A stretch of 64,000 nt of DNA from an uncultured Acidimicrobiales bacterium. GTDB taxonomy: Bacteria; Actinomycetota; Acidimicrobiia; Acidimicrobiales; DATKAS01. The translations under genes were made by a program, and so were the position numbers. The stretch lies in NCBI GenBank assembly GCA_963747215.1, contig CAVVET010000022.1:76637-140636 (forward strand), in the 5' to 3' direction. Below are positions 26,963 through 58,901 of this stretch, piece after piece. The notes beneath the pieces are model-generated. The model was given only the letters and a program-made list of their open reading frames with translations, did no database searches and was not told the origin of the DNA. Each line of letters starts with the position of its first letter. Within the stretch, counting starts at the first letter, position 1.

Positions 26963-27820
26963 CTACCCCCCGGGTGCGGTGGTCTGCGGTGACGAGCTCA
27001 CCTCGCGGCGCGACGGCGGGTCGTCTCGTTCGACGGTCGCCCATCGGAAGAACAGCACGGCCATCACGGTCCAGACGATCGGGATGTTGCCGATCTTCAT
27101 GATCGCTCCGGCGAGCTGCTGATCGGAAAGCGCACCAAAGTCTTGGATGCGGGGCGCGAGCTCGTAGGTGCGGTAGAGCGGGAAGCTCGAGAACGTCAGG
27201 AAGCCGCCGGGGATCATCGCGAACACACCGGCGGCGAGAAACAGGTACACCATTCGCACCGGGAACGACTTGTGGATGAGCTCGGGCAACGGGCTTATCA
27301 ATGGCTGCCACAAGATCACGCCCGACGCGAGCCAGAGCACGTCGAGCGCGAAGCCTCCGAGCTGGGTCGTGCGCACGTTGTCGACGACGATCGGCGTGTG
27401 GGTCACGAGCAGCACGACGTTGAACGCGATCGCGGCCACGACTGGCCGCGCCATGAACCGCAGGGCGCGGTAGAGGCGGAGCCGCTCGGCAACCCGACGC
27501 GCCATCCACTCGGGTGTGCCCAACACCAGCAGCGGCGCGGCCACGAGCGTGTACAGCATGTACTGCACCATGTGGGCCGACGCGAGGTAGCTGGCGCCGA
27601 GCGTCGCGAGCGGCCAGTCGCTCGCGAGCCACAACACCGCCCATCCGAGCGCGAACCACAGCGCCTTGCGGCGATCGATCGGCGTCCGCGTACGCCGGTG
27701 ACGTCGCCACACCGCGCGGAAGTACGCGAACGCGAGGAGGCCCGCCACCAACCACACGCCGGGGTAGGCGCGGAACTGCCAGGACCACGGCTCCTTGAGG
27801 GCCTGGCACCAGAAGCTCAC
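26963..27820 (-). CDS. ctaG: Cytochrome c oxidase assembly protein (Caa3_CtaG family membrane protein)
   Basis: Polytopic membrane protein. GTG 27820 forms a GTGA overlap with the Sco stop. Sequence: WSWQFRAYPGVWL...SAHMVQYMLYTLVAAPLLVLG... Confidence 0.8.
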   Translation of the reverse strand: MSFWCQALKEPWSWQFRAYPGVWLVAGLLAFAYFRAVWRRHRRTRTPIDRRKALWFALGWAVLWLASDWPLATLGASYLASAHMVQYMLYTLVAAPLLVLGTPEWMARRVAERLRLYRALRFMARPVVAAIAFNVVLLVTHTPIVVDNVRTTQLGGFALDVLWLASGVILWQPLISPLPELIHKSFPVRMVYLFLAAGVFAMIPGGFLTFSSFPLYRTYELAPRIQDFGALSDQQLAGAIMKIGNIPIVWTVMAVLFFRWATVERDDPPSRREVSSSPQTTAPGG

Positions 27821-28510
27821 GACTGCCACTCGCTCGTGACGAGGCGCGGGAGGTCGCCCGCCCAATCGGACTGACGGACACCGAACGGATACACGAGGTG
27901 GGCTCGGTCATCCAGCGAGTAGGCGAGCACCTGGCTGGAGTGGGCCACGATGTAGCTCTCGTCGGCCGGTTGGATCTCGAGCTGCGCCTCAGGCACCTGC
28001 GCGGCCCGCTCGGCCGCGAGGATCTCCTCCGGGGTGCCGGTGAGCCCGATGAATCGGGAATCGAACCGATCGAGCCACTCGCGAAGCACCGCGGGGGTGT
28101 CGCGCGCCGGGTCGGTCGTCACGAACACGACCTTCACCTTCTCCTCGACCTCCCCGGAGACCTCGCGCAACACGGTCGCGATGTTGCCCATGTGCAGCGG
28201 GCACACGTCAGGGCAGCTCGTGTAGCCGAAGAAGAGGAGCGTCACGAAGCCGTCGGTCGAGGCGCGAAAGTCGTACGGGCGACCTTCGGTGTCGGTCAGG
28301 GTGAAGTCGGGCTTCGCGTACGGCTCGCTGAGCAGCTCGTCCGCCCCAGCCGTCATCGGCGGCCTCGTCGGACTGCGCACGAACCGCGAAGAACGCCGCG
28401 ACCCCGAGCAGCACGATCGCGACGACGACCGCGATGGCCACCGCTCGTACCGGCGTGGGGTGCTCTCCGGCCGGCGGCGGAGCGGGAGGTTCGGAGGTCG
28501 CGAGGCTCAT
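27817..28510 (-). CDS. SCO1/SenC family copper chaperone (thioredoxin fold), one frame break
   Basis: ORF 27817..28380 has FFGYTSCPDVCPLHM (CxxxC). The N-terminal TM anchor, from MSLATSEPP...VAIAVVVAIVLLGVAAFFAV (ATG 28510), is in the frame of ORF 28208..28660. The break is near 28340. Confidence 0.8.
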
Positions 28511-28571: not shown

Positions 28572-28973
28572 ATGGCCGATTCCGCCGCTGAGGTCGAAGC
28601 AGTCGCAGCCCGCTTCTTTGCCGCGATCGAGGCAGGCGACGTGGAGGCCATCCGTCGCATCTACGCCCCTGACGCCGTTGTCTGGCACAACAACGACGAG
28701 GTCGAGCAGGCCGTCGAACAGAACCTCGTCGTGCTGCGCTGGGTGATCGACCACGTCAAGGGATGGCACTACGAGGATGTGCGTCGTTCGACGTTCGAGG
28801 GCGGCTTCGTGCAGCAGCACGTCGGCAAGGGCGTCGCACCGAGCGGTCAGCCGTTCTCGATGCCGGCGTGCATCGTCGGACGCGTGCACGATGGACGCGT
28901 CACGCGTATCGACGAGTACCTCGACTCCGCGGCGGTCGCGGCGCTGACGGTCAGGCCAGCTCGCCCTGACTGA
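28572..28973 (+). CDS. SnoaL-like / NTF2-fold protein
   Basis: Intact 133 aa ORF: VEAVAARFFAAIEAGDVEAIRRIYAPDAVVWHN. Confidence 0.7.
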   Translation: MADSAAEVEAVAARFFAAIEAGDVEAIRRIYAPDAVVWHNNDEVEQAVEQNLVVLRWVIDHVKGWHYEDVRRSTFEGGFVQQHVGKGVAPSGQPFSMPACIVGRVHDGRVTRIDEYLDSAAVAALTVRPARPD

Positions 28974-29691
28974 CCGGCACCTCTTGCGTCACCGCCACGC
29001 CGCCCGCGACCTCGTCGGTGATCAGGACGCTTTGGACGTTCGGATCGGTGCTGAATGCCGAGACGGTGGGCTCGTTGCCGAGTACGCCGAGTGAGATGAC
29101 CTCATCGCCGATGATGCCCCACATCTGGTAGGTGCGATCGGACGCGAGGGTGGGCATCGTGCGCGGCACGAGGTAGCCCTGCCCGTCGGGCTGCACCACC
29201 ACGTCGGCCATGGCCACCCCGTCATCAGTGCGCAGCGCGGTGAGACGCGCGTTGGGATCGGTCATCGCTTCAGCGGCACCCACGACGAGAGAGTCGGCCG
29301 CGACCGCTTCGTTCAGGTCGTCGATCTCCTGGCCCTGGCGCACGACCGTCAGGCCGAGGACCACGATCGCCGCCGCGGCGACCGACCCCAGGACAGCCGG
29401 CCACCGCGAGCGGCGCTTTGTCTCAATCGGCACCACGGGCGCGAGCCGCAGCTCCGGCGGCACCTCGGCGGAGATCGTGTCGGCGATGCGATCCCACACA
29501 CCGTCGGGAGCTCGCCCGCCGGCGAGCGACATCATCGCGGCCACCTCACGGTGCTCGGCCACCTCGGCCCGGGCCCGCGGGTTCTCCTCGAGGTAGTCCT
29601 CGATCTGCTCGCGCTCGTCCGCATCCACCGCGTCGAGCGCGTAGGCGCCCAGTAGCTCGTCCATCTCGGTGGAGGTCAGGCGTCGGTCCAT
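28951..29691 (-). CDS. Anti-sigma factor, RskA-like (N-terminal anti-sigma domain, TM, extracytoplasmic RskA domain)
   Basis: Intact 246 aa ORF: ELLGAYALDAVDADEREQIEDYLEENPRARAEV, the TM helix WPAVLGSVAAAAIVVLGLTVV, and C-terminal DRTYQMWGI. Confidence 0.8.
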   Translation of the reverse strand: MDRRLTSTEMDELLGAYALDAVDADEREQIEDYLEENPRARAEVAEHREVAAMMSLAGGRAPDGVWDRIADTISAEVPPELRLAPVVPIETKRRSRWPAVLGSVAAAAIVVLGLTVVRQGQEIDDLNEAVAADSLVVGAAEAMTDPNARLTALRTDDGVAMADVVVQPDGQGYLVPRTMPTLASDRTYQMWGIIGDEVISLGVLGNEPTVSAFSTDPNVQSVLITDEVAGGVAVTQEVPVSQGELA

Positions 29692-30266
29692 GACGGCCCT
29701 CCTGTGCCGATGTCGACGAGGTGTGTCCGCATCCGTTTCAACCCGGAACGGATACGGCTCTTCACTGTTCCTTCTGGTTCCCGCAACATGCTCGCGACTT
29801 CACGGTAGGTGTGGCCACCGAAGTACGCGAGCTCGATCGCCCGGCGCTCGCCTTCGGGCAGCGACGAGACCGCCTCTCTCACCCGTTCGGCCGTGGCGAG
29901 ATCCCAGACCTCGTGCTCGAGGTCGTAGCCGCCTTCTGCAGTCGCCCGAGCCTCCCGCTCCTCGCGGCGGCGACGCGCGCCTTCCGAGCGCAGCACGTCG
30001 ACCGACCGGCCGTGCGTCTGGGCGAGCAGATAGGACCGCAGTGACCCTCGCCCCGGCTCGAAGCGATCGGGATGGTTCCAAATCCGCAGGAAGACCTCTT
30101 GGGTGACCTCCTCCGCGAGCGACTCGCTCGCGAGGAGACGCCGGGCCAGGCCGTAGACCGCCCCCGCGTGCCGCCGGTAGGCCTCGGCGAGGGCGTCTTG
30201 TCGGTAGCGCGCGATGGCGACGACGAGGGTCGCGTCACTCGCGTCGCGTAGCGACTCGGCCGTCAC
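29676..30266 (-). CDS. ECF-type RNA polymerase sigma-70 factor (SigK-like)
   Basis: Intact 196 aa ORF with sigma-2 (EVTQEVFLRIWNHPDRF) and sigma-4 (ELAYFGGHTYREVASML...GTVKSRIRSGL) regions. It overlaps the downstream anti-sigma gene. Confidence 0.85.
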   Translation of the reverse strand: MTAESLRDASDATLVVAIARYRQDALAEAYRRHAGAVYGLARRLLASESLAEEVTQEVFLRIWNHPDRFEPGRGSLRSYLLAQTHGRSVDVLRSEGARRRREEREARATAEGGYDLEHEVWDLATAERVREAVSSLPEGERRAIELAYFGGHTYREVASMLREPEGTVKSRIRSGLKRMRTHLVDIGTGGPSWTDA

Positions 30267-45905: not shown

Positions 45906-46640
45906 TCAGCGCGGCAGCGGCGGATCGGACAGCAGCTCGTCCTGCAGCGCGAAGATCTCGCGAATGCCGCCCTCGGCGAGGCCGAGCAACGCGTCGAGCT
46001 CGTTCCGGGAGAACGCGATGCCCTCGGCGGTGCCCTGCACCTCGACGAAGCGTCCCGACGACAGCATCACGACGTTCATGTCGACCTCGGCGCCCGCGTC
46101 CTCGACATAGGGCAGGTCGAGTCGGGCTTCGCCTTCGATGATGCCCACCGAGATGGCCGCGCAGCGCTCCGTGATCGGATGGGCCTTGATCGTGCCTGCG
46201 AGCAGCAGGCGGCTCAGCGCGTCGTGCAGAGCGAGGTATCCGCCGCAGATCGAGGCGGTGCGCGTGCCGCCGTCGGCCTGGAGCACGTCGCAGTCGATGA
46301 TGACTTGCCGTTCGCCGAGCGCGCGCATGTCGGTCACCGCGCGCAGCGACCGTCCGATCAGCCGTTGGATCTCCTGCGTGCGCCCTGAGACCTTGCCGCG
46401 GGCGGCTTCGCGTTCGATGCGCTCGGGTGAGGAGCCGGGGAGCATGGAGTACTCGGCGGTCACCCATCCCTTCCCGCTCCCCCGCATCCACCGCGGCGTG
46501 TCCTCGTCGACCGACGCCGTGCAGAGCACGCGGGTACGCCCGAACGACACGAGCGCGGATCCGGCCGCCATGTCGGTGTAGTCGCGCTCGAACGTGATGG
46601 GGCGGAGCTCGTCCGCTGCCCGACCATCGGCTCTCGGCAT
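45906..46640 (-). CDS. rph: Ribonuclease PH
   Basis: Intact 244 aa ORF: [10 protein letters not shown]...[15 protein letters not shown]...[15 protein letters not shown]...[16 protein letters not shown]. Confidence 0.95.
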
Positions 46641-46649
46641 TCGCGCTCC

Positions 46650-47387
46650 TCAGCTCACCACGAAGGTCTTGCCTGGTACTGCGACACCCACCGCGCGACC
46701 GAACGCCTCGGCCGCTTCGTCCTCGTGCCGACGCGGGTCAGAGGTGGGCCAGAAGTGCGTGACCACGAGCTCTCCCACTTCGGCCTCGGCGGCCGTTCGG
46801 CCGGCTTGGCGGGACGAGAGGTGCGGCGCGGTGCCCTCCGTCTCCTCGAGCAGCGTCGCCTCGCACAGCGCAAGATCGGCGCCTCGGCCGAGCGCCTCGA
46901 GCGACCAGTCCGGACCCGTGTCGGCGGAGTAGAGCAGCGACTTGCCGTTGCTCGCGATGCGCATGGCGAGCGTCTCGACGGGGTGATCGGTCTCGGAGAA
47001 CGAGAAGTCGAGATCGCCGATCGTGACCTTGTCGCGATTCGCGACGATCTCCCACCGGAACGTCGGGGCCGACGAGTCGCCGCACACGATGTCGACGAGC
47101 TTGCGCACCGCAGTCGTCGAGTAGACGGGCATGCCGTCGACTTGGAACCCGTACTTCAACGCGTTGCGCACCACGCCGAGCTCGCCCCAATGGTCCGGAT
47201 GGCTGTGACTCACGACGATCGCATCGAGCGCTGTCAGGTCGATGTGCTGCTGAAGGTTGGCGAGCGAGCCCGGCCCGGTGTCGACCCACACGTTCGTGGC
47301 ATCGGTGCGCACGAGGTAGCCGCTGCACGCTCCACCAGGGCCGGCGTAGGTGCCCGAGCAACCCAGCACCGTCACGCTCAGGCCCAT
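46650..47387 (-). CDS. MBL-fold metallo-hydrolase
   Basis: From ATG 47387: MGLSVTVLGCSGTYAG...VVSHSHPDHWG. It overlaps the murI stop by 10 nt. This position between murI and rph is conserved in actinobacteria. Confidence 0.8.
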   Translation of the reverse strand: MGLSVTVLGCSGTYAGPGGACSGYLVRTDATNVWVDTGPGSLANLQQHIDLTALDAIVVSHSHPDHWGELGVVRNALKYGFQVDGMPVYSTTAVRKLVDIVCGDSSAPTFRWEIVANRDKVTIGDLDFSFSETDHPVETLAMRIASNGKSLLYSADTGPDWSLEALGRGADLALCEATLLEETEGTAPHLSSRQAGRTAAEAEVGELVVTHFWPTSDPRRHEDEAAEAFGRAVGVAVPGKTFVVS

Positions 47388-48187
47388 TCGATGGCCTCGG
47401 CGTGATCGAGCTCGGGACCGAGCAACCGCCGGCCGATCTCCTCGAACCAGGCGACATCGCCTGACGAGACGAAGCGGTGGGTGGCGCCGCCGCAGCCGCC
47501 CTTGCGGGCGAGCCCGGTCGCGTCGAGCACGACCTGCACCTCGAACGCGGTCTCGTCCGCGGAGGAAACGAGCACCACGTTGCGGCCCATCACGTCGCTG
47601 ATCGTACGGGCGAGGTACGGGTAGTGAGTGCAGCCGAGCAACAGCGCGTCGACATCGGCGTCGCACACGGGGGCGAGAAGACGTTCCGCGAGGACCGTGA
47701 CCTGGTCGCCCGTCGTCTCTCCCCGTTCGACGAACTCGACGAAGCCGGGGCACGCGGCGCAGGTCAGATCGACCTGCGCGTTCGTCGCCTCCACGGCTCG
47801 CTGGTACGCGCCCGAACCGATCGTGCCCACCGTGCCGATCACGCCGACGCGTCGATTGCGGGTCGCTGCGATCAGCGCGCGCACCCCCGGCTCGATCACG
47901 CCGATGACGGGGACCGGCAGCGACTCGGTCAACGCGTCGAGCGCGGCGGCGGCCGCGGTGTTGCACGCCACCACCACCGTCTTCACGTCGAAGCGGTCGA
48001 CGAGCGTGTGTGCGATCTCGAGCGCGAAGTCCTTGACCTCGGGCTGCGGACGTGGGCCGTAGGGATAGCGCCCGGTGTCGCCGAGGTAGACGAGGTGCTC
48101 GTCGGGAAGCAGGTCCATCACGGCTCGAGCGACGGTCAACCCCCCGAACCCGCTGTCGAACATGCCGATCGGGCGGTCGTCGGGCAC
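47378..48187 (-). CDS. murI: Glutamate racemase
   Basis: Intact 269 aa ORF: IGMFDSGFGGLTV...YLGDTGRYPYG...VVACNTA...LGCTHYP. Confidence 0.9.
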   Translation of the reverse strand: MPDDRPIGMFDSGFGGLTVARAVMDLLPDEHLVYLGDTGRYPYGPRPQPEVKDFALEIAHTLVDRFDVKTVVVACNTAAAAALDALTESLPVPVIGVIEPGVRALIAATRNRRVGVIGTVGTIGSGAYQRAVEATNAQVDLTCAACPGFVEFVERGETTGDQVTVLAERLLAPVCDADVDALLLGCTHYPYLARTISDVMGRNVVLVSSADETAFEVQVVLDATGLARKGGCGGATHRFVSSGDVAWFEEIGRRLLGPELDHAEAIEWA

Positions 48188-48199
48188 GGCCAGAGGCTA

Positions 48200-49235
<1,036 letters not shown>

Positions 49236-49286
49236 CTACCGGAACGGTCGGGATTTGCGGCCGTCGCCGCGGGTTAGCGTCCGCCC

Positions 49287-50546
49287 ATGACACGGACGGT
49301 CTTCCACGGCGGGACGGTCTTCGACGGCACTGGCGCACCCTCGGCGCCCGGTGACGTGCTCGTCGAGGACGGGCGCATCGTGGACGTCGGCCCGCAGCTC
49401 GACGGCGACGAGGGCATCGACCTCAGCGGCAAGTGGGTCTTGCCCGGACTCTTCGACTGCCACGTGCATGTGATGTTCAGCCCCACGCTCATGGACATCG
49501 CGCGTCGTGTGAACACCCCGTTCTCGAGTCGCTTCTTCGACGCCGTCCACAACCTCGACGCCACCCTCCGCCAGGGCGTCACGAGCGTGCGCGACGCGTC
49601 CGGCGCCGATCTCGGCGTCAAGCAGGCAGTCGACCAGGGTCGCATCGCCGGGCCTCGCCTGCAGATCTCGATCTCGATGTTGAGTCAGACCGGCGGCCAC
49701 GGCGACGGCTGGACGCTGTGTGGCGCGGAGCTCGGCATCGGCGCGTCCTACCCTGGCCATCCCCACACGGTCGTGGACGGACCCGATCAGATGCGGCACA
49801 AGGTGCGCGAGCTGCTCCGCGCCGGCGCCGACGTGCTGAAGGTGGCGACGTCCGGCGGCGTCCTGTCACCACGCGACGATCCTCGGCACGGTCACTTCCG
49901 CGATGACGAGCTCGAGGTGCTCGTCGCCGAGGCGAGCGCGGCCGGCAAGTACGTGATGGCTCACGCGCAGGCGACTGATGGCATCAAGGCCGCCGTCCGC
50001 ACCGGCATCCGCTCGATCGAGCACGGCATCTACCTCGACGACGAAGCGATCGGGATGATGCTCGACCGCGGCACGTGGCTCGTACCGACGCTCGCTGCTC
50101 CACGTGGCGTCTTCGCGGCGCGCGACGCGGGCATTCCCGTGCCCGACGTGATCCTGAAGAAATGCGAGATGGTGATGGAGACCCACACCGACTCGATCCG
50201 GCGTGCGATCGCGGCGGGTGTGAAGGTCGCGATGGGCACGGACTCCGGCGTCTGTCCCCACGGCCAGAACCTCCGCGAGCTCGCGTTGATGGCCGATTGC
50301 GGCATGTCGGCCGAGGGTGCGCTCGTCGCCACGACCAAGACGGCGGCGGAGCTGCTCGGCGTCGCTGACGACCTCGGCACGATCGAACCCGGCAAGCGTG
50401 CGGACCTCGTCGTCGTCGACGGTGATCCCCTCGAGCTCGACAAGCTTCCCGACCGCATCAGCCAGGTCTGGAAGGACGGGCGGCCTGACCCGGCCAAGGC
50501 CCAGACCCCTAGGCCCACCCTTCGAGCGCGATCGGTTCCTCGCTGA
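49287..50546 (+). CDS. Amidohydrolase family metal-dependent hydrolase
   Basis: 419 aa ORF: VLPGLFDCHVHV, KVATSGGVLSP, MAHAQA, IEHG and MGTDSG. The 3' end overlaps the convergent mec gene by 38 nt, so the last residues are uncertain. Confidence 0.85.
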   Translation: MTRTVFHGGTVFDGTGAPSAPGDVLVEDGRIVDVGPQLDGDEGIDLSGKWVLPGLFDCHVHVMFSPTLMDIARRVNTPFSSRFFDAVHNLDATLRQGVTSVRDASGADLGVKQAVDQGRIAGPRLQISISMLSQTGGHGDGWTLCGAELGIGASYPGHPHTVVDGPDQMRHKVRELLRAGADVLKVATSGGVLSPRDDPRHGHFRDDELEVLVAEASAAGKYVMAHAQATDGIKAAVRTGIRSIEHGIYLDDEAIGMMLDRGTWLVPTLAAPRGVFAARDAGIPVPDVILKKCEMVMETHTDSIRRAIAAGVKVAMGTDSGVCPHGQNLRELALMADCGMSAEGALVATTKTAAELLGVADDLGTIEPGKRADLVVVDGDPLELDKLPDRISQVWKDGRPDPAKAQTPRPTLRARSVPR

Positions 50547-50920
50547 TCTCGCCGTCGACGATGCGGTACGAGCGCAGCACCGGCTCCGGCTGCTTGAGCG
50601 ACACGATGAGGTAGTGCCAGTCGGGGTCGGGAGCCTGCGCGACGTCAGTGGGCGACGGATACGGCTCGGTGTGCGTGTGGCTGTGCATCACACCGATGAT
50701 CTCGAGCCCTCGACCTTCGGCATCACGCTCCGCGAGAAGGTGGTCCTTCGGGTCGACGGTGTAGAGCTTCGACGACTCGGCCGCGTTCCGGCACGGGTAG
50801 AACACCGTGATGTGCCGCGCGTGCCGCGTCGCCGGCCACGAGGCCACACGCTTCGTCGGGCAGGCCGTCGAACGCATGCCCGATCATCGCCAAGTACGGC
50901 TGTCGAGTGAGGCGAAGCAC
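50509..50920 (-). CDS. mec: Mov34/MPN/JAMM metalloprotease (Mec-like), one frame break
   Basis: GTG 50920 gives VLRLTRQPYLAMIGHAFDGLPDEACGLVAG. After the break near 50810 come ITVFYPCRNAAESSKLYTVDP and the JAMM motif GVMHSHTHTEPYPSPTD (ORF 50509..50877). Confidence 0.75.
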
Positions 50921-50945
50921 GAGGCGAGAGTACCCTCGACCCCCC

Positions 50946-51421
50946 ATGGCTCCGAAGGGCGTGAAGGTCGTCGCGTCGAACCGACGCGCGGCGCCACGAC
51001 TACGCCGTGCTCGACACGATCGAGTGCGGGCTCGCCCTCGTCGGCAGCGAGGTGAAGTCGCTCCGCGACGGCAAGGTGCAGCTCGGCGACGCGTACGCCC
51101 GCGTCGAGCGGGGCGAGCTGTGGCTGCACAACATGCACATCGCGGCCTATGAGCATGCCGCCGGGTTCGGCGCCCACGTCACCGACCGGCCCCGCAAGCT
51201 CCTCGCTCACCGGTCCGAGATCGACCGCCTCGGCGCCCGAGTCGCGCAGGAACGGCTGGCGCTCATCCCCCTCGCCCTCTACTTCAAGGAAGGCCGGGCC
51301 AAGGTCGAGCTCGCCCTCGGCAAGGGCCGCAAGAGCCACGACCGCCGGCAGGACATCGCCAAGCGCGACACGAATAGAGAGGTCGAGACGCGCTCTCAAG
51401 AGTTACCATCGAGGCAGCTGA
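50946..51421 (+). CDS. smpB: SsrA-binding protein, 2 frame breaks
   Basis: ATG 50946 gives MAPKGVKVVASNRRAA. One extra base near 50991-50995 then shifts to HDYAVLDTIECGLALVGSEVKSLR (ORF 51007..). The C-terminus REVERALKSYHRGS ends at 51421 in the frame of ORF 51149..51421. Confidence 0.85.
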
Positions 51422-51550
51422 GACTGCGCGAGTACGAAGGGAGGACGAACCGATGGAAGCCATTGCCCTCGCCGCCCGGTCCTCGTCCCGCGTGCTCCCG
51501 GCCACCTGACCGCACTGCTCGGTCGGGAGCACCTCCCAGGAGGTTCTCCG

Positions 51551-52603
51551 TTGTCTGAAGTCGTCCTCGACGCTCTCGTCCCCTACGGCTGGGACGACCG
51601 CGTCGCCGCACTGTTCTCCTTCGAAGCAGATCCCACTGACACTCCCGGCCGCGTGGTCCGCGTCGACCGCGACCGCGTCTCCGTCATCACCGAATCGGGC
51701 GAGCACCGCTCGGCCCGCGGCGACCCACTCCCGAGCATCGGCGACTGGGTGGGGCTCACGACCGGAGGTCCCGACGGTGATCTCGTCGTCCGCTCGGTGC
51801 TGACCCGACGCTCGGTGCTCGGCCGGCGCAGCGCGGGCAAGGCACCCGACGGTCAGGTGATGGCCGCGAACGTGGATCTGGTGTTCGTGCTCGTCGGCGT
51901 CGACCGCGTCGTCCTCAACCGAGTCGAGCGTGAGCTCGTCGCCGCGTGGGACTCGGGCGCCACCCCTGTCGTGATCCTCACCAAGGCCGACCTGGTCGAC
52001 GATCCGCTCGAGATCGCCACGGAGGTGGCAGCGCGCTCGCACGGCGTCGATGTGATCGTCACCTCGTCCGTCACGGGCACAGGGATCGACGAGGTCACTG
52101 CCCTCCCGCAACCGAACCGCACGGTCGTGCTGCTCGGCGCATCGGGCGTCGGGAAGTCGACGCTCGCGAACGCGTCTGCTCGGCGAGGAGATGCTCGAAA
52201 CCGGGGAAGTGCGCGAGCAGGACCATCGCGGGCCGTCACACGACGACGGCGCGGAGCATGGTGACGCTTCCGCTCGGCGGAGTGCTGATCGACACGCCGG
52301 GCATCCGCAGCCTTGGCCTGCTCGAGTTCGAGGAGGGACTCGCGCTCGCCTTTCCCGACATCGAAGAGCTCGCCGCGCAGTGCCGCTTTCGCGACTGCAC
52401 CCATCGCAGCGAGCCCGGATGCGCGGTGCGGGCCGCAGTGGCCGGCGGAGACCTGGACGCCGCCCGCATGAGCTCGTACGAGAAGCTGCAGAAGGAGCTC
52501 GCCTACTCGGATCGGGTCGGCGATCCGATCGCGCTCCGGGCCGAGATGCGCAAGTGGAGGGCGATCCACAAGTCCGTTCGGGACATGCAACAAGCAGCGC
52601 TGA
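51551..52603 (+). CDS. rsgA: Ribosome small-subunit-dependent GTPase A, about 3 frame breaks
   Basis: TTG start 8 nt after AGGAGG. Contains VVILTKADL and LLGASGVGKSTLANA. Two breaks (~52175, ~52235) precede GRHTTTARSMVTLPLGGVLIDTPGIRSLGL and the zinc-site CRFRDCTHRSEPGCAV. The stop is assigned to TGA 52601-52603 after a further shift and is uncertain. Confidence 0.8.
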
Positions 52604-52645
52604 GATTCGATGTCACATCCGGCGCCGCCCGGACGTCGATCAGGT

Positions 52646-53927
52646 ATGGACGCACATGCAGACATCGTCGTCGTCGGAGGCGGCCTCGCCGGCCTGATCG
52701 CCGCCGCCACGGCCGCCGGACCCGACTCGGGATCACGGCTCGACGTCGTCGTGCTCGAGGGCACACAACCGGGCGGCCGGGCTCGTACCGATGCGCGCAG
52801 CGGCTACCGCTTCAATCAAGGCGCCCACGCCATCTATCTCGGCGGCGCGCTCCGGCGCACGCTCGGCGAGCTCGGCATCGATCCCAGAGGCGGGCCTCCG
52901 GCCATCAACCACACCTCGGTCTGGCACGAAGGTGCGCTCTACCCGCTGCCGGCGTCGGCCCGGAAGCTCCTGGCGAGCCGTCTCCTCGGTCCGCGTGCGA
53001 AGGCGCAGATCGCGAAGTTGCTGCCGTCGCTGGGAAAGATCGACGCTTCGCAGCTCGCGAACGTCACGGGCGCGCAATGGCTCGACAGCCTCGAGCTCCA
53101 GCCCGAAGCGCGCCAGCTCATCTCCCTGCTGGTGCGCACGGCAACGTACGTCGATCCGGACGCGATGCCGATCTCGGCCGACGCGGCGGTGTCGCAGCTG
53201 CAGATGGCGGTCGCGCCGGGCGTCCGGTACATCGACGGTGGCTGGCAGACACTCGTCGACGGGTTGCTCGCGGTGTGCGAGTCGCGCGGGGTGAGGGTGG
53301 AGACGAAGACTCCCGTCGTGTCGGTGAGCTCCTCCGATGGTGGCGTCGAAGTCGTTGCCGGATCGGGCCACTGGACGGCGAAGGCGGCCGTGATCGCGGG
53401 ACTCGGGCCTGCCAACGCGACCTCGTTGCTCGGCGGCGACGCCGTCTGGGGCTGACCTCGGCGACACCGCGACCGCGGCGTGTCTCGACCTCGGACTGAC
53501 GCGCCCGCCGTCGCATCCGGTCGCGTTCGGCTTCGCCGATCCCGTGTACCTCTCGACCCACTGTCCGCCCGCCGATCTCGCTCCGAACGGCGGCGCGGTC
53601 GTCCACGCCATGCGCTACGGAGCACGCGGCGCGGACGTGGACCGGGCCTCACTCGACGAGCTTGTCGCCGGCGTCGGCATCGACGCCTCGACGATCGTCA
53701 CCGAGCGCTTCCTCGCCCACATGAACGTCGCGTGGACGGTGCCGACCCCGTCACGGGGCGGATTGCCGGGACGCCCGCCGGTGACGGTTCCGAGCCACGA
53801 CGGCGTCTTCGTCGCCGGCGACTGGGTGGGGCCCGTCGGCTTGCTGTCCGACGCGACGGCGGCGAGCGCGGTGAGCGCGGCGACTGCGGCTCGCGCGGCG
53901 CGACGATCGCTCGCCGGGGCACGCTGA
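52646..53927 (+). CDS. NAD(P)/FAD-dependent oxidoreductase (phytoene desaturase/amine oxidase-like), one frame break
   Basis: Starts MDAHADIVVVGGGLAGL. Continues after the break near 53452 as DLGDTATAACLDLGL...YLSTHCPP...VFVAGDWVG (ORF 53544..53927). Confidence 0.75.
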
Positions 53928-53932
53928 TCACC

Positions 53933-54820
53933 GTGGACGTTCCCGCGAGCGCCATCCCCACGAACGACGTCGATGTCTTCGAAGCCGAACGTCCACGGCT
54001 GCTCGGCCTCGCGTACCGGATCCTCGGCTCGGCGGTCGATGCTGAAGACGTCGTGCAGGAGGCATGGGTGCGGTGGAGCTCCGCGGAAGGCATCGAACGA
54101 CCCGCCGCCTGGCTGACCACCGTCGTCAGCCGGCTCGCTCTCGACGCCTGGCGCGCACAGCAGCGCAAGCGCGAGGACTACGTCGGGCCGTGGCTCCCCG
54201 AGCCGGTGGCGATCGAGCCCGGCCCCGCGGAGCGAGCCGAGCTCGCCGACTCACTGACGCTCGGGTTCCTCGTGCTCCTCGACGAGCTCACGCCGGTCGA
54301 ACGCGTCGTCTTCCTGCTCGCCGACGTGTTCGGCGAGCCGTACGCGGACATCGCGACCACCGTCGGGAAGTCAGAGGCGGCCTGCCGTCAGATCGCGAGC
54401 CGCGCCCGGCGTCGGCTGCAGGAGTCGAGACCGAAGAGACCAAGTCGCTCGTCGGCGCCGCTGGCCGCAGCATTGCTGCAAGCAGTCGCGAGCGGCGATG
54501 TCGCCGCGACGATGGCGTTGCTCGATCCCGATGTCGTGCTCACGAGCGACGGTGGGCCGCACCGCCACGCCGCTCGGCGTCCCGTGATCGGCGCGGACCG
54601 CGTCACGCGCCTCCTGGTGAACATCACCCGCCGCGGGCTGGCCAACGCCGACATGCAGTTCGTGGACGTCAACCGGACGCCGGCGCTGGTGATCTCGTTC
54701 CGCGGTCGCCCCGAGATGGTGGTCGCGATCGAGAGCAACGACGATCGCGTCCAAGCGATCCGCATCGTCGTGAACCCCGACAAGCTCAAGCACCTTGCCG
54801 AGCCGATGCGCTTGATCTGA
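53933..54820 (+). CDS. ECF sigma-70 factor with C-terminal SnoaL-like extension (SigJ/ECF41-like)
   Basis: GTG 53933 lies 5 nt after the upstream TGA. Contains FEAERPRLLGLAYRILGS..DAEDVVQEAWVRW, TPVERVVFLLADVF and ACRQIASRARRRL, plus a ~110 aa extension. Confidence 0.8.
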   Translation: MDVPASAIPTNDVDVFEAERPRLLGLAYRILGSAVDAEDVVQEAWVRWSSAEGIERPAAWLTTVVSRLALDAWRAQQRKREDYVGPWLPEPVAIEPGPAERAELADSLTLGFLVLLDELTPVERVVFLLADVFGEPYADIATTVGKSEAACRQIASRARRRLQESRPKRPSRSSAPLAAALLQAVASGDVAATMALLDPDVVLTSDGGPHRHAARRPVIGADRVTRLLVNITRRGLANADMQFVDVNRTPALVISFRGRPEMVVAIESNDDRVQAIRIVVNPDKLKHLAEPMRLI

Positions 54821-54825
54821 GCCGC

Positions 54826-55513
54826 TCAGGCGGTCACGGTCGCGTCGACGTCGAATTGGCTCGGCGCGTGCGAACCGCAGCTCGACCTGGACCGTGAGCC
54901 CCGGCTCGAGTGCCTCGTGGAGATCGAGCAGCATGATGTGCGACGTGGCGTCGCCGAGCTCGCGTGTCTGGCCCGGTGCTACCGCGATCCGCGCAACCGG
55001 TTGCATCTCTGCTCGTCCTTCGACATCTCGGGTCGCGTGCAGCGAAGCGTTACGCGGCGACCGGGGTAGTCACCGCCACCGAGCGCGTCATCCTTGTTCG
55101 ACCGGTTCCGCACCGTGAACGACAGCACCGAGACGCCTCCCGGCGGAGCCTGGGTGACCACGACGTCGGACACCTCCACGTTCGGCGCTGCGGACGTTGC
55201 GACAGGGTCATCGCTCACAACGACGAGAGTCCCCACCGCGGCGGCGGCGATCGCACCGATTCCCGCCGCTATCGGCGCTCGCCGACGACGACGTCGGAGC
55301 GGCGGCAGCGCCCGCATGATCTCGCTGGTCAGCTCCGGCACCGGCTCGCTCGGATGCACCCGCACCACGCGATGGACCGCGCGCGATATCGTTCGCCGTA
55401 CACGCGACACGACTCGCAGCCGGCGACATGCGCCGAAACGGCAGCGCGCTCGCGGAGGTCGGCCTCGTTGTCGAGGATTGCCGAAGGGCCTCGCGGCAGG
55501 TGACGCAGTCCAC
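54826..55513 (-). CDS. Anti-sigma factor (zf-HC2) - TM helix - PCuAC (DUF461) copper chaperone domain fusion, 3 frame breaks
   Basis: GTG 55513 gives MDCVTCREALSAILDNEADLRERAAVSAHVAGCESCR. ORF 54979..55410 has, in one frame, the linker PSEPVPELTSEIMRAL, RRRRRR plus the TM helix IAAGIGAIAAAAVGTLVVV, and VEVSDVVVTQAPPGGVSVLSFTVRNRS. The frame of ORF 54371..55006 gives LHATRDVEGRAEMQPV...ATSHIML (H-X10-M-X21-H-X-M). The tail QFDVDATVTA ends at TGA 54826. Confidence 0.65.
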
Positions 55514-55526
55514 GTCTACGACTCGT

Positions 55527-56062
55527 TCACGATCTGGACTGGGCTCTCCGGCTGGCTGATACGCGTCCGAGAGGATCGAGCAGGGCGCCGCGCGACCCGC
55601 GATCGGATCGTGCCGACGGGACATTCACAGGCATCGGCCGCTTCGGCGTACGAAAACCCGAGGATCTGCGTGAGCACGAACGCCTCGCGGCGGTCGTCGT
55701 CCAGCTGTGCGATGAGGTCGTAGAGCTCCACGAGACCCGGACGCGCTCGGCGTGGCCTCCTCCTCGGGATCGCTGGTCCGCTCGAGCAACCGACGCCCAC
55801 GGGAAATGGTGCGAATCGCGTCGGCACACACGCGTCGAGCGATTGACAACAACCAGACGCGGGCACTCGATTCACCCTTGAATCGAGCGAGCGCTGGCAC
55901 CGCCCGCAAGAACGTCTCCTGTGTGAGGTCATCGGCCGAGTCTGGCGACACCGGATACGCGCAGAGCTTCCACACGTCGGACTGCGACCCACGCACGAAA
56001 GCCTCGAGCGCGATGCGATCTCCGTGACACGCGGCGACCGCGAGTCGCGTGAGATCGTCCAC
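55527..56062 (-). CDS. ECF-type RNA polymerase sigma-70 factor, 2 frame breaks
   Basis: ORF 55625..56062 has [34 protein letters not shown]. The sigma-4 region [39 protein letters not shown] is in the frame of ORF 55516... The end ALLDPLGRV... stops at 55527. Confidence 0.75.
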
Positions 56063-56095
56063 CGGTGCATGGTGGCAGGATCGCCTGCCTCGGTC

Positions 56096-56761
56096 CTAAG
56101 CGGGACGTCGGCGAAGGCCCACGAGAGCGACCGCCCCGAGAATGACGCCCACGGCGCCGACGACGATGCCGATGATCGCCAACGTGTTCGAGTCCGACTC
56201 ATCGGAGGTGGAACCATCGCTCTCAGCTCCCGCTGCGGGAGTGAGGTTGAGCAGAGGGGCGGGATGCGCCGGCTCATCCTCGCCCTCGACGACCGGCTCC
56301 ACCCAGCGCACGACCTCGCCGTCGTCGTAGGTCTGGACCGCGGGGAACATCAGGGCGGTACCGGGCTCGTCAGGGAGCGGGCCGAGCTCGATGTCGAAGA
56401 TCTCGAACTGGCCCGGCGGGATCTCTCCGCCCTCGAAGGTCACGGAGGTCACGGCCTCGGTGATCTCGCCATCCTCACCCTGGACCGGCGGGTCGAGCGG
56501 CGAGGTGGTGAGAGTGACCTCCCATCCCGGCGTCTCCCGCGCCAGCACGAACGGGATCACCACGTCCTGCGGCATGGCGATCTCGACCTTCACCGTGTTC
56601 GCCGATGCGGTCTCGTTCGGCACCTGGAAGTGCAGGATCGCGAACCCGCCCGCCTCGACCTCGTCGTTGTCGATCGTGACGTGCGCGCTCGCGGCGCGGG
56701 CGGGCAACACGAGCAGGGCGGCGGTCAGGACGGCAAAGCGGGCGAGGCGAAGTCGGGTCAT
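56096..56761 (-). CDS. YcnI family (DUF1775) copper-binding protein, membrane-anchored
   Basis: Intact 221 aa ORF. Signal peptide ...PARAASA|HVTIDN leaves an N-terminal His. Contains [29 protein letters not shown] and PAPLLNL, with a C-terminal TM helix [21 protein letters not shown]. Confidence 0.8.
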
Positions 56762-56796
56762 GCCTCACTGGTCGCTCCTGGCGGCCGATTGGTTCC

Positions 56797-57557
56797 CTAG
56801 GCGTTCAGCTTTCGCACCCCGAACCAGACGCCGGCGCCGACGAGCGCAAGGATGCCGACGGCGACGGCGCCGATCACCAACGGGGTGGAGTCGTCCTCCT
56901 CGGTGTCAACCGTGCTGGCGGCGGTCGTCGCCGCGGCGGTCGAGTCGGGGGCGGCTGCAGTGGTCGCGGCTACGGCCGTCGTCTCCACTGCCGCCGTCGT
57001 CGGCGGTGCTGCCGTGGTGGCCGGTGCGGTCGTGGTGGTGACTTGACCAGGAAGATCGGCGACCAGGACAACGGGCGCGGGATCTTCCGGCTCGCTGCCG
57101 TCCGCGTTCGGCGGCTGGACCCATCGGATCTCGCCGACCTCGCAGGTCTGGACGACGGGGAAGAGCAAGACCTGATCCGGTGTGTCCGGGAACCTCATGG
57201 ACACGGTGAGGCCGAGCGGCTCGTGATCAGGCTGGGGGCCGCCGGTCCAGGTGATCACGCTGCCCTCGACCTCGAACTCCCAGCCGGGGACGAGCTCGGG
57301 CTCGACTGCGGTCACCCCGCCGGGACCTGCATCTCGACCTTGGTCGTCGGCGACTCACTGCAGCCGTGTTCGATCGTGAACAGCACGGGTGAGGTCGATC
57401 CGGGCTCGACCTGAGTCGGCTCGACCTCGACGTGGGCGAAGGCAGGGGTGGCCAGCAGGACGAGGGCGCCAGCGGCAGTGGCGGCCGAGATCACGAGCTT
57501 GCGGGGGGAAATCACGGGTTTCCATGCTGCCAGACGGGCGGCTGCTCCCCGCGTCAC
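56797..57557 (-). CDS. YcnI family (DUF1775) paralogue with Thr/Ala-rich linker and C-terminal TM anchor, one frame break
   Basis: ORF 57312..57557 has the signal peptide ...LLATPAFA|HVEVEP and FTIEHGC. One base missing in the C4 run at 57315-57318 separates it from ORF 56797..57315 (VTAVEPELVPGWEFEV...FPVVQTCEVGEIRWVQP). The likely true start is GTG 57515. Confidence 0.75.
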
Positions 57558-58901
57558 TCAGAGGAACGACTTGGGGATGAGCCCGTTCGCGCGGGCTTCA
57601 CGTTCGAGGTCGTCGCGGAAGTCGGGATGGGCGAGCGAGATCATCGCCTTGGCCCGTTCGGGGACCGACTTGCCCTTGAGGTTGACGAGTCCGAACTCGG
57701 TGACCACGTACATCATGTCGCTGCGCGGCGCGGTGACGATGTTCCCCGGTGTCAGGCTCAGCACGACGCGGCTGCGTCGATCGCCGTTGCGCTCGTAGGT
57801 CGACGACATGCACACGAACGACTTGCCGCCTTTCGACGCGTACGCGCCGCGGATGAACTGCAGCTGACCACCGGTGCCGCTGATGTGGCGGTGACCGTTC
57901 GACTCGCTCGCGGCCTGGCCCTGGAGATCCATCTGGGTCGTGTTGTTGATCGCCGTCATGCGGTCGTTCTGGATGATCTGATGCGGCAGGTTCGTCATGT
58001 CGACCGGTTGGCACGAGATGTCGGGGTTGTCGTCGATCGCGTCGTACGTCGACTTCGAGCCGAGACGCGAAGGTGCACACGATCTTGCCGGGATGGGACG
58101 TCTTCGCCGCGCCGGTCACGACACCGGCCCGGTAGAGGTCGATGATCCCGTCGGTGAGCATCTCGGTGTGGACGCCGAGGTCGCGCACGCCGCTCTCCAT
58201 CAGCAGCGAGCACACGGCGTTCGGCATCGCGCCGATGCCGATCTGCAGGCACGCGCCGTCTTCGATCTCCGCCGCGATCAGCCGCGCCACGGCACGATCG
58301 GCGTCGGTCGGTGCCGCGTTCGGCAGCTCGGGCAGCGGCTGCCCCGTCGCCGTCGATCACGTAGTCGACCTCGCTCGCGTGCAGCCCGTTGTCGATGCCG
58401 TGCACATAGGGCAGCGCCGGGTCGACTTCGACGATGACGACCTTCGCCCGTGAGGCGACCGCCCGGTGCCAGAGGTTGGCCGGACCGAAGTTGAAGTACC
58501 CGTCGGCGTCGATCGGACAGGTCTTGACCACCATGACGTCGGGCGGGTCGATGAAGCGCCGGTAGTAGTCGGGGATCTCGCCGAGGTTGCACGGGATGTA
58601 GTTCTGCCGGCCGGCGTCGCACTGCTTGCGGTCGTAGCCGCCGAAGTGCCAGTTGAAGAACGAGACGTGCTCGCCGCTCGGGATCGGCCTCGAGCACGGC
58701 CCGCGGTCCGCGTGCACAGGCACCCGCGGATGTTCACGCATCGAGCTCGCCGATCCGCTCGGCCAGGGCCTTGTCGAACACGTCGGGCTGCGCGAGCACC
58801 GCGCCGTAGTCGAGCCAGTCGCCGGAACGGACCAGCGCGGCCGCCTCCTCCGCCGAGATGTGTCGAGCCGACTTGGCGGAGGCGATCGTGGGTGAGGTCA
58901 C
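57558..58901 (-). pseudogene. Acetyl-CoA hydrolase/transferase family (4-hydroxybutyrate/succinyl-CoA:acetate CoA-transferase-like), about 5 frame breaks
   Basis: GTG 58901 gives VTSPTIASAKSARHISAEEAAALVRSGDWLDYG. Later pieces are VNIRGCL, AVLEADPERR, HVSFFNWHFGGYDRK...EVDYVIDGDG, QPLPELP...ARLIAAEIEDGACLQIGIGAMPN, and SKSTYDAIDD...QMDLQGQAASE...MMYVVTEFG. These span five frames. Confidence 0.7.

Follow-up and report, generated by a model that had tools for sequence, protein, structure and literature searches.

The stretch of DNA analysed here (the window) is a 64,000-nucleotide (64 kb) part of contig CAVVET010000022.1 from an uncultured member of the Acidimicrobiales, a soil actinobacterium of the class Acidimicrobiia. 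Positions 54826-57557 of its minus strand hold four co-oriented genes, namely those coding for two YcnI/DUF1775 paralogues (YcnI2, then YcnI1), an extracytoplasmic function (ECF) sigma factor and a fusion protein in which a zf-HC2 anti-sigma domain, a transmembrane (TM) helix and a PCuAC copper chaperone domain follow one another. An initial annotation, made from the sequence alone, had proposed these four genes in this order, and Pfam searches with the frame-repaired products identified every one of them.

The YcnI2 gene occupies positions 56797..57557 (Pfam DUF1775, 98.5 bits), and the YcnI1 gene, an intact open reading frame (ORF) of 221 amino acids (aa), positions 56096..56761 (DUF1775, 149 bits), preceded at 56771..56797 by an ECF-type promoter-like motif, GGGAAC-N17-CGAC. 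The sigma factor gene (55516..56062) extends from a GTG at 56062 to a TAG at 55518-55516, and the fusion gene (54826..55513) from a GTG at 55513 to a TGA at 54828-54826, coding for a protein of about 230 aa after five frame repairs. The gap of 13 nucleotides (nt) originally given between the sigma stop codon and the anti-sigma start is most likely one of only 2 nt according to the comparison with the related locus L002, to which the probable sigma C-terminus, ...QIVNES*, also corresponds. Scans of the locus for sigma-70 promoters and intrinsic terminators found none.

The anti-sigma factor fused to a PCuAC domain

After frame repair, the fusion product matches Pfam PCuAC with 85.7 bits (cut-off 29.4) over profile positions 1-108 of 109 and zf-HC2 with 35.6 bits (cut-off 22.2). 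The putative cytoplasmic part, a class-I zinc-associated anti-sigma (ZAS) domain with its linker (55297..55513), carries the zf-HC2 motif MDCVTCREAL...HVAGCESC recognized at the outset, with the codons of H-x3-C-x2-C at 55430-55407, and ends in HPSEPVPELTSEIMRAL. It is followed, within 55216..55296, by an arginine run RRRRRR (55296-55279) and a single TM helix APIAAGIGAIAAAAVGTLVVV (55278-55216), and then by the full-length PCuAC match (54829..55185). The H-x10-M-x21-H-x-M copper site described in the initial annotation was counted directly and is exact (LHATRDVEGRAEM...21...HIM), its ligand codons being His 55039-55037, Met 55006-55004, His 54940-54938 and Met 54934-54932. The PCuAC domain has neither a signal peptide nor a lipobox of its own, being preceded in the same ORF by the anti-sigma domain, the Arg-rich stretch and the TM helix. 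Because the Arg run precedes the helix, the positive-inside rule predicts a type-II membrane protein with the N-terminus inside and the C-terminus, including the copper site, outside.

The gene as assembled contains five frame changes, not the three counted previously. Alignment to L002 points to one base missing at about 55484 and a net gain of two somewhere between about 55414 and about 55379; single-base insertions at 55081, 55052 and 54855 are seen against L003, a 97% identical metagenomic contig spanning the 3′ two-thirds of the anti-sigma gene, and are confirmed by the more distant L002. The sigma gene has at least one frame break at about 55745-55725 and possibly a compensating pair at about 55590-55545, while the YcnI2 gene has one at about 57317, where a base was lost from a G run. 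In the region surveyed for breaks (46600-58900), rsgA (about 52174-52231), a PALP gene (about 48420), a JAB gene (about 50810), an amino oxidase gene (about 53442) and an acetyl-CoA hydrolase/transferase gene (57558-58901) are split as well, and since the breaks also hit the rsgA, PALP, JAB and amino oxidase genes, the window is a noisy assembly. The domain fusion itself needs no frame repair, as ORF 54979..55410 exists as first reported and spans the junction uninterrupted, linking HPSEPVPELTSEIMRAL, RRRRRR, the TM helix and the first PCuAC strands NVEVSDVVVTQAPPGGVSVLSFTVRNRSNKDDAL in one frame. An artefactual fusion made by a frameshift is ruled out by this ORF and by the intact orthologues described below.

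A search with the repaired protein revealed three relatives: P0001 (96% identical, cut by a contig end), P0002 (65% identical, with zf-HC2 and PCuAC) and P0003 (50% identical, an intact protein of 229 aa from loci L001/L004). The identity shared by the intact orthologues is 50-96%. The gene order recurs in the relatives, P0003 being encoded on a 286-kb contig of an Acidimicrobiales metagenome-assembled genome (MAG) with the order DUF1775, DUF1775, sigma factor, fusion. Two more species-level MAGs (L005 and L006) contain a YcnI gene, a sigma factor gene and an intact fusion ORF with a sigma-fusion gap of 2 nt. In this way, four related Acidimicrobiales loci with the same gene order (L001/L004, L005, L006 and L002) carry the fusion as a single intact ORF. 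The initial annotation had left room for orthologous loci in which the two parts are always separate genes; what the relatives carry is one ORF.

A HMMER search of 1.84 billion cluster representatives gave 2795 matches. Among the best 150, about 35 span the full length (218-267 aa) with about 30-40% identity, and at least 34 distinct 50%-identity clusters have the zf-HC2/TM/PCuAC architecture. Pfam finds PCuAC in all 34 full-length homologues and zf-HC2 in 33 of them. The invariant columns of the 34-sequence alignment are S11, A12, D15, H29, C33, C36, N138, H160, M171, H193, M195 and G206; the four Cu(I) ligands among them (H160, M171, H193, M195) are thus kept in 34/34, with the exact spacing in 27/35, and of the 30 homologues whose N-terminus is complete, 29 have the zinc motif C-x25-H-x3-C-x2-C. 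All fusion members with a source name come from the Acidimicrobiia, including a cultured one, Rhabdothermincola salaria (WP_232671542.1). In their source records they are named "copper chaperone PCu(A)C", "copper(I)-binding protein", "periplasmic copper chaperone A" or "hypothetical protein". The fusion gene directly follows an ECF sigma gene in 12 of the 14 lineages with readable upstream DNA, the exceptions being L009 and L093. Such pairs were seen in the window, L002, L004-L008, L011-L013, L092, L094, L095 and one JGI contig, and their junctions are either gaps of 2-23 nt or overlapping stop and start codons.

The structure of the external domain, also raised as a check at the outset, was predicted with AlphaFold2 (AF2) on orthologue P0003 using the 34-sequence alignment, and a PCuAC-like beta-sandwich was obtained. 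The mean predicted local distance difference test score (pLDDT) is 88.6 and exceeds 95 in the PCuAC domain. Helices 3-14, 20-32, 34-50 and 62-68 (pLDDT >90) form the class-I anti-sigma domain, a single long helix at 74-100 corresponds to the TM segment, and the beta-sandwich, a cupredoxin-like fold, takes up residues 114-228. The top Foldseek matches of this model in the PDB are Cu(I) chaperones throughout, with TM-scores (normalised to the target) of 0.88-0.90 for Streptomyces lividans ECuC (3zja, 3zk0), 0.89 for Neisseria gonorrhoeae AccA (9yah), 0.80 for Thermus PCuA (2k6w), 0.75-0.83 for several entries of PmoF1/2 and 0.59 for DR1885 (1x9l). The family profile also aligns with RsiW, the anti-sigma-W factor (5wuq_C), along the first 75 residues at an E-value of 5.7e-8, and a weak match to RsrA was given by NCBIfam. 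We infer that the N-terminal domain binds the adjacent sigma factor, and the ectodomain is likely to bind copper.

About 25 of the best 150 representatives (P0060, P0061, P0065, P0075 and others) share the ZAS domain and have no PCuAC copper-site motif. They are 40-50% identical to residues 1-100, where most of them match exclusively, with P0017 and P0025 extending into the PCuAC region; these proteins may be anti-sigma factors of related sigmas equipped with other sensor domains. At L009 (202-1616), the fusion gene is divergent from a gene coding for a rhomboid-family intramembrane protease, with the promoter-like motif between them, and this protease could be relevant to the cleavage of the membrane anti-sigma factor of that locus. 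In a divergent lineage (L092 5753-10417, L093 2115-6779), Nramp, MgtE-like, ZnuA-like and DUF1775 genes come after the fusion gene. On the JGI 3300059473 contig, the sigma-fusion pair precedes genes for a 201-aa protein, an Orn/Arg decarboxylase-like protein, a PALP/rhodanese protein and a 416-aa HMA-domain protein; together they may form a cluster for small molecules or metal handling that is controlled in the same way.

The sigma factor, the YcnI proteins and a shared promoter-like motif

The sigma factor of the window consists of Sigma70_r2 and Sigma70_r4_2 without region 3, as does that of L095, and those of L007, L011, L012, L092 and L094 match ECF-family models of NCBIfam. Its best NCBIfam match is the SigC model PRK09649 with 181 bits (cut-off 219), whereas the next family beyond the SigC-like PRK12535 scores 85 bits. 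PRK09649 and PRK12535 are the two best matches, in either order, for seven out of seven sigma factors (the window, L005, L007, L011, L012, L092 and L094), with a margin of 10 to 30 orders of magnitude in E-value between the SigC models and the next family, all scores being below the equivalog cut-offs. Against the PDB, the intact sigma factor of L005 finds Mycobacterium tuberculosis SigC first (2o7g, 1.7e-23; 2o8x, 2.3e-15), the next ECF sigma factor having an E-value of 8.5e-15. Judged by these matches, the sigma factor appears to be SigC-like and is probably of the ECF36 type. Within ECF36, of which SigC is the type member, the SigC subgroup has no discernible anti-sigma factor (PMC7826278). 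The sigma factors described here do not share the traits of subgroup ECF36s4, that of M. tuberculosis SigC: an anti-sigma gene adjoins, and at about 180 aa, with alignments that begin 2-12 positions into the SigC models, they differ from ECF36s4 with its regulatory N-terminal extension.

YcnI1 has a signal peptide, a DUF1775 domain, an acidic and Ser-rich linker and a C-terminal TM anchor. The N-terminal histidine that cleavage was predicted to expose in both paralogues (ASA|HV in YcnI1, AFA|HV in YcnI2) aligns with the mature N-terminal His27 of B. subtilis YcnI or with the corresponding position of its homologue 3esm. In YcnI1, compared with the B. subtilis protein (7me6), His27, Glu50 (VPNE) and Trp137 (vvrW) are all kept, which are the residues of the Cu(II) monohistidine brace (PMC8424229). 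YcnI2, starting at GTG 57557 or possibly GTG 57515, likewise has a signal peptide (AFA|HVEVEP), a Thr/Ala-rich linker and a C-terminal TM anchor and aligns to 3esm from the histidine onwards with the tryptophan kept (irW). Since a glycine stands at the Glu50 position, within "FTIEHG", with Glu-His just before it ("FNVEHG" in the L001 orthologue), its copper site is probably a variant one. The fusion gene of the unrelated lineages L092/L093 and L095 likewise has DUF1775 genes in its vicinity. The segment preceding the YcnI2 signal peptide (57515-57545, minus strand, CTGGCAGCATGGAAACCCGTGA) is conserved at about 3930-3960 of L004 (CTGCCAGCATGGCCACCCGTGA) and may code for an N-terminal extension (AAWKPV vs PAWPPV) instead of being a DNA signal.

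In the 64 kb of the window, both strands included, GGGAAC-N17-CGAC has a single match (0.36 expected), at 56797-56771 of the minus strand, with its 3′ end 9 nt upstream of the ycnI1 ATG at 56761. A -35 element GGAAC with a -10 element CGnC is the layout typical of ECF promoters. The motif lies 8-11 nt before the ycnI start codon in L004, L005 and L006 and at the same distance before the anti-sigma start in L005, L006, L007/L008, L009 (intergenic), L010, L012, L094 and L095; the spacer sequence is not conserved between the loci. It also precedes, within the same 8-11 nt, the SCO1-PCuAC-x-sigma-fusion operon of R. salaria (L011) and is found about 50 nt upstream of a divergent PCuAC lipoprotein gene in L012 and about 45 nt upstream of a convergent, separately transcribed DUF1775 gene in L095. 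The motif would thus tie the sigma/anti-sigma pair to ycnI, SCO1 and PCuAC genes across independent lineages.

Altogether, 15 matches were found in 192 kb of both-strand sequence (96 kb of fusion loci), and every one that was examined precedes the start of a fusion, ycnI, SCO1 or PCuAC gene or of an adjoining gene downstream. A scan of metagenome contigs gave mostly standalone PCuAC loci, with L012 and L013 as the only fusions, and the other 78 served as the background set. Its 600 kb of both-strand sequence, from 300 kb of loci, yielded 3 matches, one placed before a SCO1-PCuAC operon and another, as motif-N10-GTG, before an ORF beside a PCuAC gene. Neither YcnI2 nor the SCO1 homologue at 27.8 kb of the window, which was checked as a further copper target, has the motif.

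Leaderless mRNAs are common in Actinobacteria, and the closeness of the motif to the start codon suggests that the ycnI1-sigma-anti-sigma transcript is leaderless or nearly so. Because the motif next to the anti-sigma gene is degenerate in the window and L002, the ycnI1 copy in the window would drive ycnI1, the sigma gene and the anti-sigma gene as a single autoregulated operon. A second copy of the motif is located in L094 (5698-5733) inside the 3′ end of the fusion gene, 9 nt before the next ATG (MKPNLAR..., cut by the contig end), and the gene starting there is predicted to be a further regulon member.

Proposed copper sensing and competing explanations

We interpret the locus as a cognate sigma/anti-sigma switch of the SigC lineage that senses extracytoplasmic Cu(I) and controls extracytoplasmic copper chaperones, probably being turned on at copper limitation, and we consider this interpretation about two-thirds probable (0.68). 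Every part of the earlier copper-sensing interpretation that could be tested computationally came out in its favour. In such a switch, the cytoplasmic zinc-binding anti-sigma domain would hold the sigma factor and the PCuAC ectodomain would report the availability of extracytoplasmic Cu(I). With sufficient copper, the Cu(I)-loaded ectodomain would be compact and the anti-sigma factor stable, leaving the sigma factor sequestered. When copper is scarce, the ectodomain would be in the apo form with flexible His/Met loops, and the sigma factor might be released through regulated proteolysis or a conformational change, a step that is speculative. The free sigma factor would transcribe from GGGAAC-N17-CGAC, which presumably functions as its promoter: in the window the ycnI1-sigma-anti-sigma operon, and in the relatives SCO1-PCuAC operons, the PCuAC lipoprotein gene and the anti-sigma gene itself. 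The resulting increase in membrane-tethered copper chaperones would support cytochrome oxidase assembly and copper uptake, and newly made anti-sigma factor would reset the switch.

Sco and PCuAC proteins take part in acquiring copper and assembling the oxidase when copper is limiting. Homologues of YcnI have been assigned to copper acquisition under the same circumstances (PMC8424229, PMC13344008), and SigC of M. tuberculosis is needed under copper starvation, inducing ctpB and the nrp operon (PMC7924339). We infer by analogy that copper limitation turns the system on, since M. tuberculosis SigC is a copper-starvation factor, YcnI, Sco and PCuAC belong to copper acquisition and oxidase assembly, and no efflux or detoxification genes were found in the neighbourhoods examined.

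Several points weigh against the limitation-induced copper switch. The sign of the response is based on analogy with M. tuberculosis SigC and the ycn and pcu operons. The fusion genes of L009 and L093 have no adjacent sigma gene, the motif before the anti-sigma gene is degenerate in the window and L002 (GGAGAG...CGAG), and the L092/L093 lineage is without the motif altogether. Standalone PCuAC proteins keep the same Cu(I) ligands (88 of 91 among the matches), so that ligand invariance was dropped as an argument for sensing and is taken to support copper binding only. In the window, moreover, the fusion gene is interrupted by five frame breaks and the sigma gene by one or more. These breaks could be real mutations in a locus that is decaying and non-functional in this genome, and their number speaks for such a possibility: five frame changes in the 0.69-kb anti-sigma gene and at least seven in 2.7 kb, compared with about four in the adjacent 7 kb of aligned coding sequence, make the density at 54.8-57.6 kb about five times that of the neighbouring 7 kb. 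Decay is nevertheless improbable, as housekeeping genes across the window, rsgA included, are also broken, YcnI1 is intact, and the three breaks that were checked are single-base insertions missing from the 97% identical contig L003. Once these insertions are taken out, 15 synonymous and 4 non-synonymous substitutions separate the PCuAC part from that of L003, and the ratio of non-synonymous to synonymous rates (dN/dS) of about 0.1 indicates purifying selection on the fusion gene. Furthermore, the sigma gene of L004, a related public MAG, contains a homopolymer error of its own. The indels in the fusion gene are either errors or very recent changes.

The fusion might also be functional without PCuAC being its sensor. 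The signal would then come through oxidation of the ZAS thiols, displacement of Zn by Cu(I) or a generic protease cascade, and the fusion would merely couple chaperone dosage to sigma activity. The zinc ligands of C-x25-H-x3-C-x2-C are indeed conserved in full, with a spacing which we take to be equal to that of RsrA C11, H37, C41 and C44, and the weak RsrA match points in the same direction. In most lineages the anti-sigma gene has its own sigma-dependent promoter-like motif, as would fit a protein wanted in quantity. Nonetheless, in many ZAS proteins, RsiW, RslA and ChrR among them, zinc has a structural role, and it is RsiW that the domain matches best in the PDB; the signal input of membrane anti-sigma factors is usually the extracytoplasmic domain; and dosage coupling alone hardly explains why at least 34 clusters keep the fusion intact and its copper ligands unchanged. 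A mere tethered chaperone is therefore considered unlikely. Slightly more doubtful still is a switch of the opposite sign, in which Cu(I) binding would signal excess and free the sigma factor, with YcnI, Sco and PCuAC buffering extracytoplasmic copper. The computed results would fit either sign, copper-binding proteins could serve as sinks, and periplasmic metal-sensing ECF systems such as CnrYXH are turned on by metal. On the other hand, no efflux ATPase, multicopper oxidase or CusF-type resistance gene was found in the neighbourhoods examined, the ycn genes aid growth at low copper (PMC13344008), and the closest characterised sigma factor, M. tuberculosis SigC, serves copper starvation (PMC7924339).

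Going beyond this locus, the fusion could serve SigC-type (ECF36) sigma factors as their dedicated copper sensor, acting as both metallochaperone and anti-sigma factor and freeing the sigma factor when in the apo state under copper starvation, a tentative proposal that we hold at somewhat short of even odds.

Known systems and the wider neighbourhood

Among characterised sigma factors, M. tuberculosis SigC is the best match by both the PDB and NCBIfam and has a copper-related role in common with the one proposed here (PMC7924339). In contrast to the window sigma factor with its adjacent membrane anti-sigma factor, predicted to be co-transcribed, M. tuberculosis sigC is monocistronic with no known anti-sigma factor, and its control has been proposed to operate via an N-terminal extension or a conformational change (PMC7924339, PMC7826278, PMC8999054). 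Its targets are ctpB and nrp, whereas those predicted here are YcnI, Sco and PCuAC genes. Another ECF sigma factor devoted to copper homeostasis, CorE of Myxococcus xanthus, has no anti-sigma factor and binds copper with its own cytoplasmic Cys-rich C-terminal extension (PMC8999054). B. subtilis ycnKJI and Bradyrhizobium pcuABCDE use YcnI/PcuD (DUF1775) and PCuAC/PcuC at low copper (PMC8424229, PMC13344008), but their regulators are the cytoplasmic repressors YcnK and CsoR or unknown ones, not an ECF pair. No CopC/CopD genes were noticed adjoining the loci examined.

The fusion has the fold and the Cu(I) motif in common with the PCuAC chaperones Thermus PCuA, ECuC, AccA, DR1885 and PmoF, as well as Sco and YcnI as genomic company. 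In place of the signal peptide that exports the known members, which are lipoproteins or soluble proteins of the periplasm, the fusion has an anti-sigma domain and a TM helix. With the class-I zinc anti-sigma factors RsiW, RsrA, RslA and ChrR it shares the N-terminal H-x3-C-x2-C domain, and with RsiW additionally the single TM helix and the extracytoplasmic C-terminal domain, but none of the four has a metallochaperone domain. RsiW is triggered by envelope stress via PrsW and RasP, and RsrA is soluble and redox-sensing. In CnrYXH of Cupriavidus metallidurans an ECF sigma factor is under the control of a metal-binding extracytoplasmic domain, and CnrH (4cxf) is among the weaker PDB matches of the L005 sigma factor. 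There, however, the sensor CnrX and the anti-sigma factor CnrY are separate, CnrX is an all-helical Ni/Co sensor and the system answers metal excess, whereas here a Cu(I) chaperone fold is joined to a ZAS anti-sigma domain.

What is known of copper sensing in bacteria comes mostly from the cytoplasmic repressors CsoR, CueR and YcnK, two-component systems and CorE, and to our knowledge the detection of too little copper at the site of cytochrome oxidase assembly is poorly understood. The initial annotation knew of no anti-sigma factor sensing through PCuAC, which agrees with the literature searched, where neither PCuA/PCuAC/DUF461 is linked with anti-sigma factors nor DUF1775 with ECF systems; the supplementary tables of ECF groups lay outside this scope and could list the architecture. 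The parts are all of known kinds, while their combination, the pairing with a SigC-like sigma factor and the deduced regulon appear undescribed. If the proposed role is true, the fusion would be the first known ECF anti-sigma factor whose input domain has a metallochaperone fold. A testable model would also be at hand for a question that the M. tuberculosis literature calls open, namely how SigC-family sigma factors sense copper deficiency, SigC being a virulence factor that drives the copper-starvation response and has no known regulator. The family gives a direct hypothesis for the sensing of extracytoplasmic copper availability, together with a promoter motif, a compact regulon (YcnI, Sco, PCuAC) and a cultured host, R. 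salaria, and the annotation "copper chaperone PCu(A)C" would then hide a regulatory protein.

Two other ECF sigma factors are encoded in the window. One (29676-30266, minus strand) is followed by an RskA-like anti-sigma-K factor (28951-29691), an ORF of 178 aa and a SCO1/SenC homologue (27817-28380). As SigK has been reported to target sigC in M. tuberculosis (PMC4821874), the two ECF systems beside copper-chaperone genes in the window may be connected. The other (about 53990-54820, plus strand), which by our reading is ECF41/SigJ-like, has a C-terminal extension of about 130 aa that gives no Pfam match at 1e-4. It converges on the anti-sigma gene with the stop codons 5 nt apart, and this arrangement is conserved in L004, L005 and L006.

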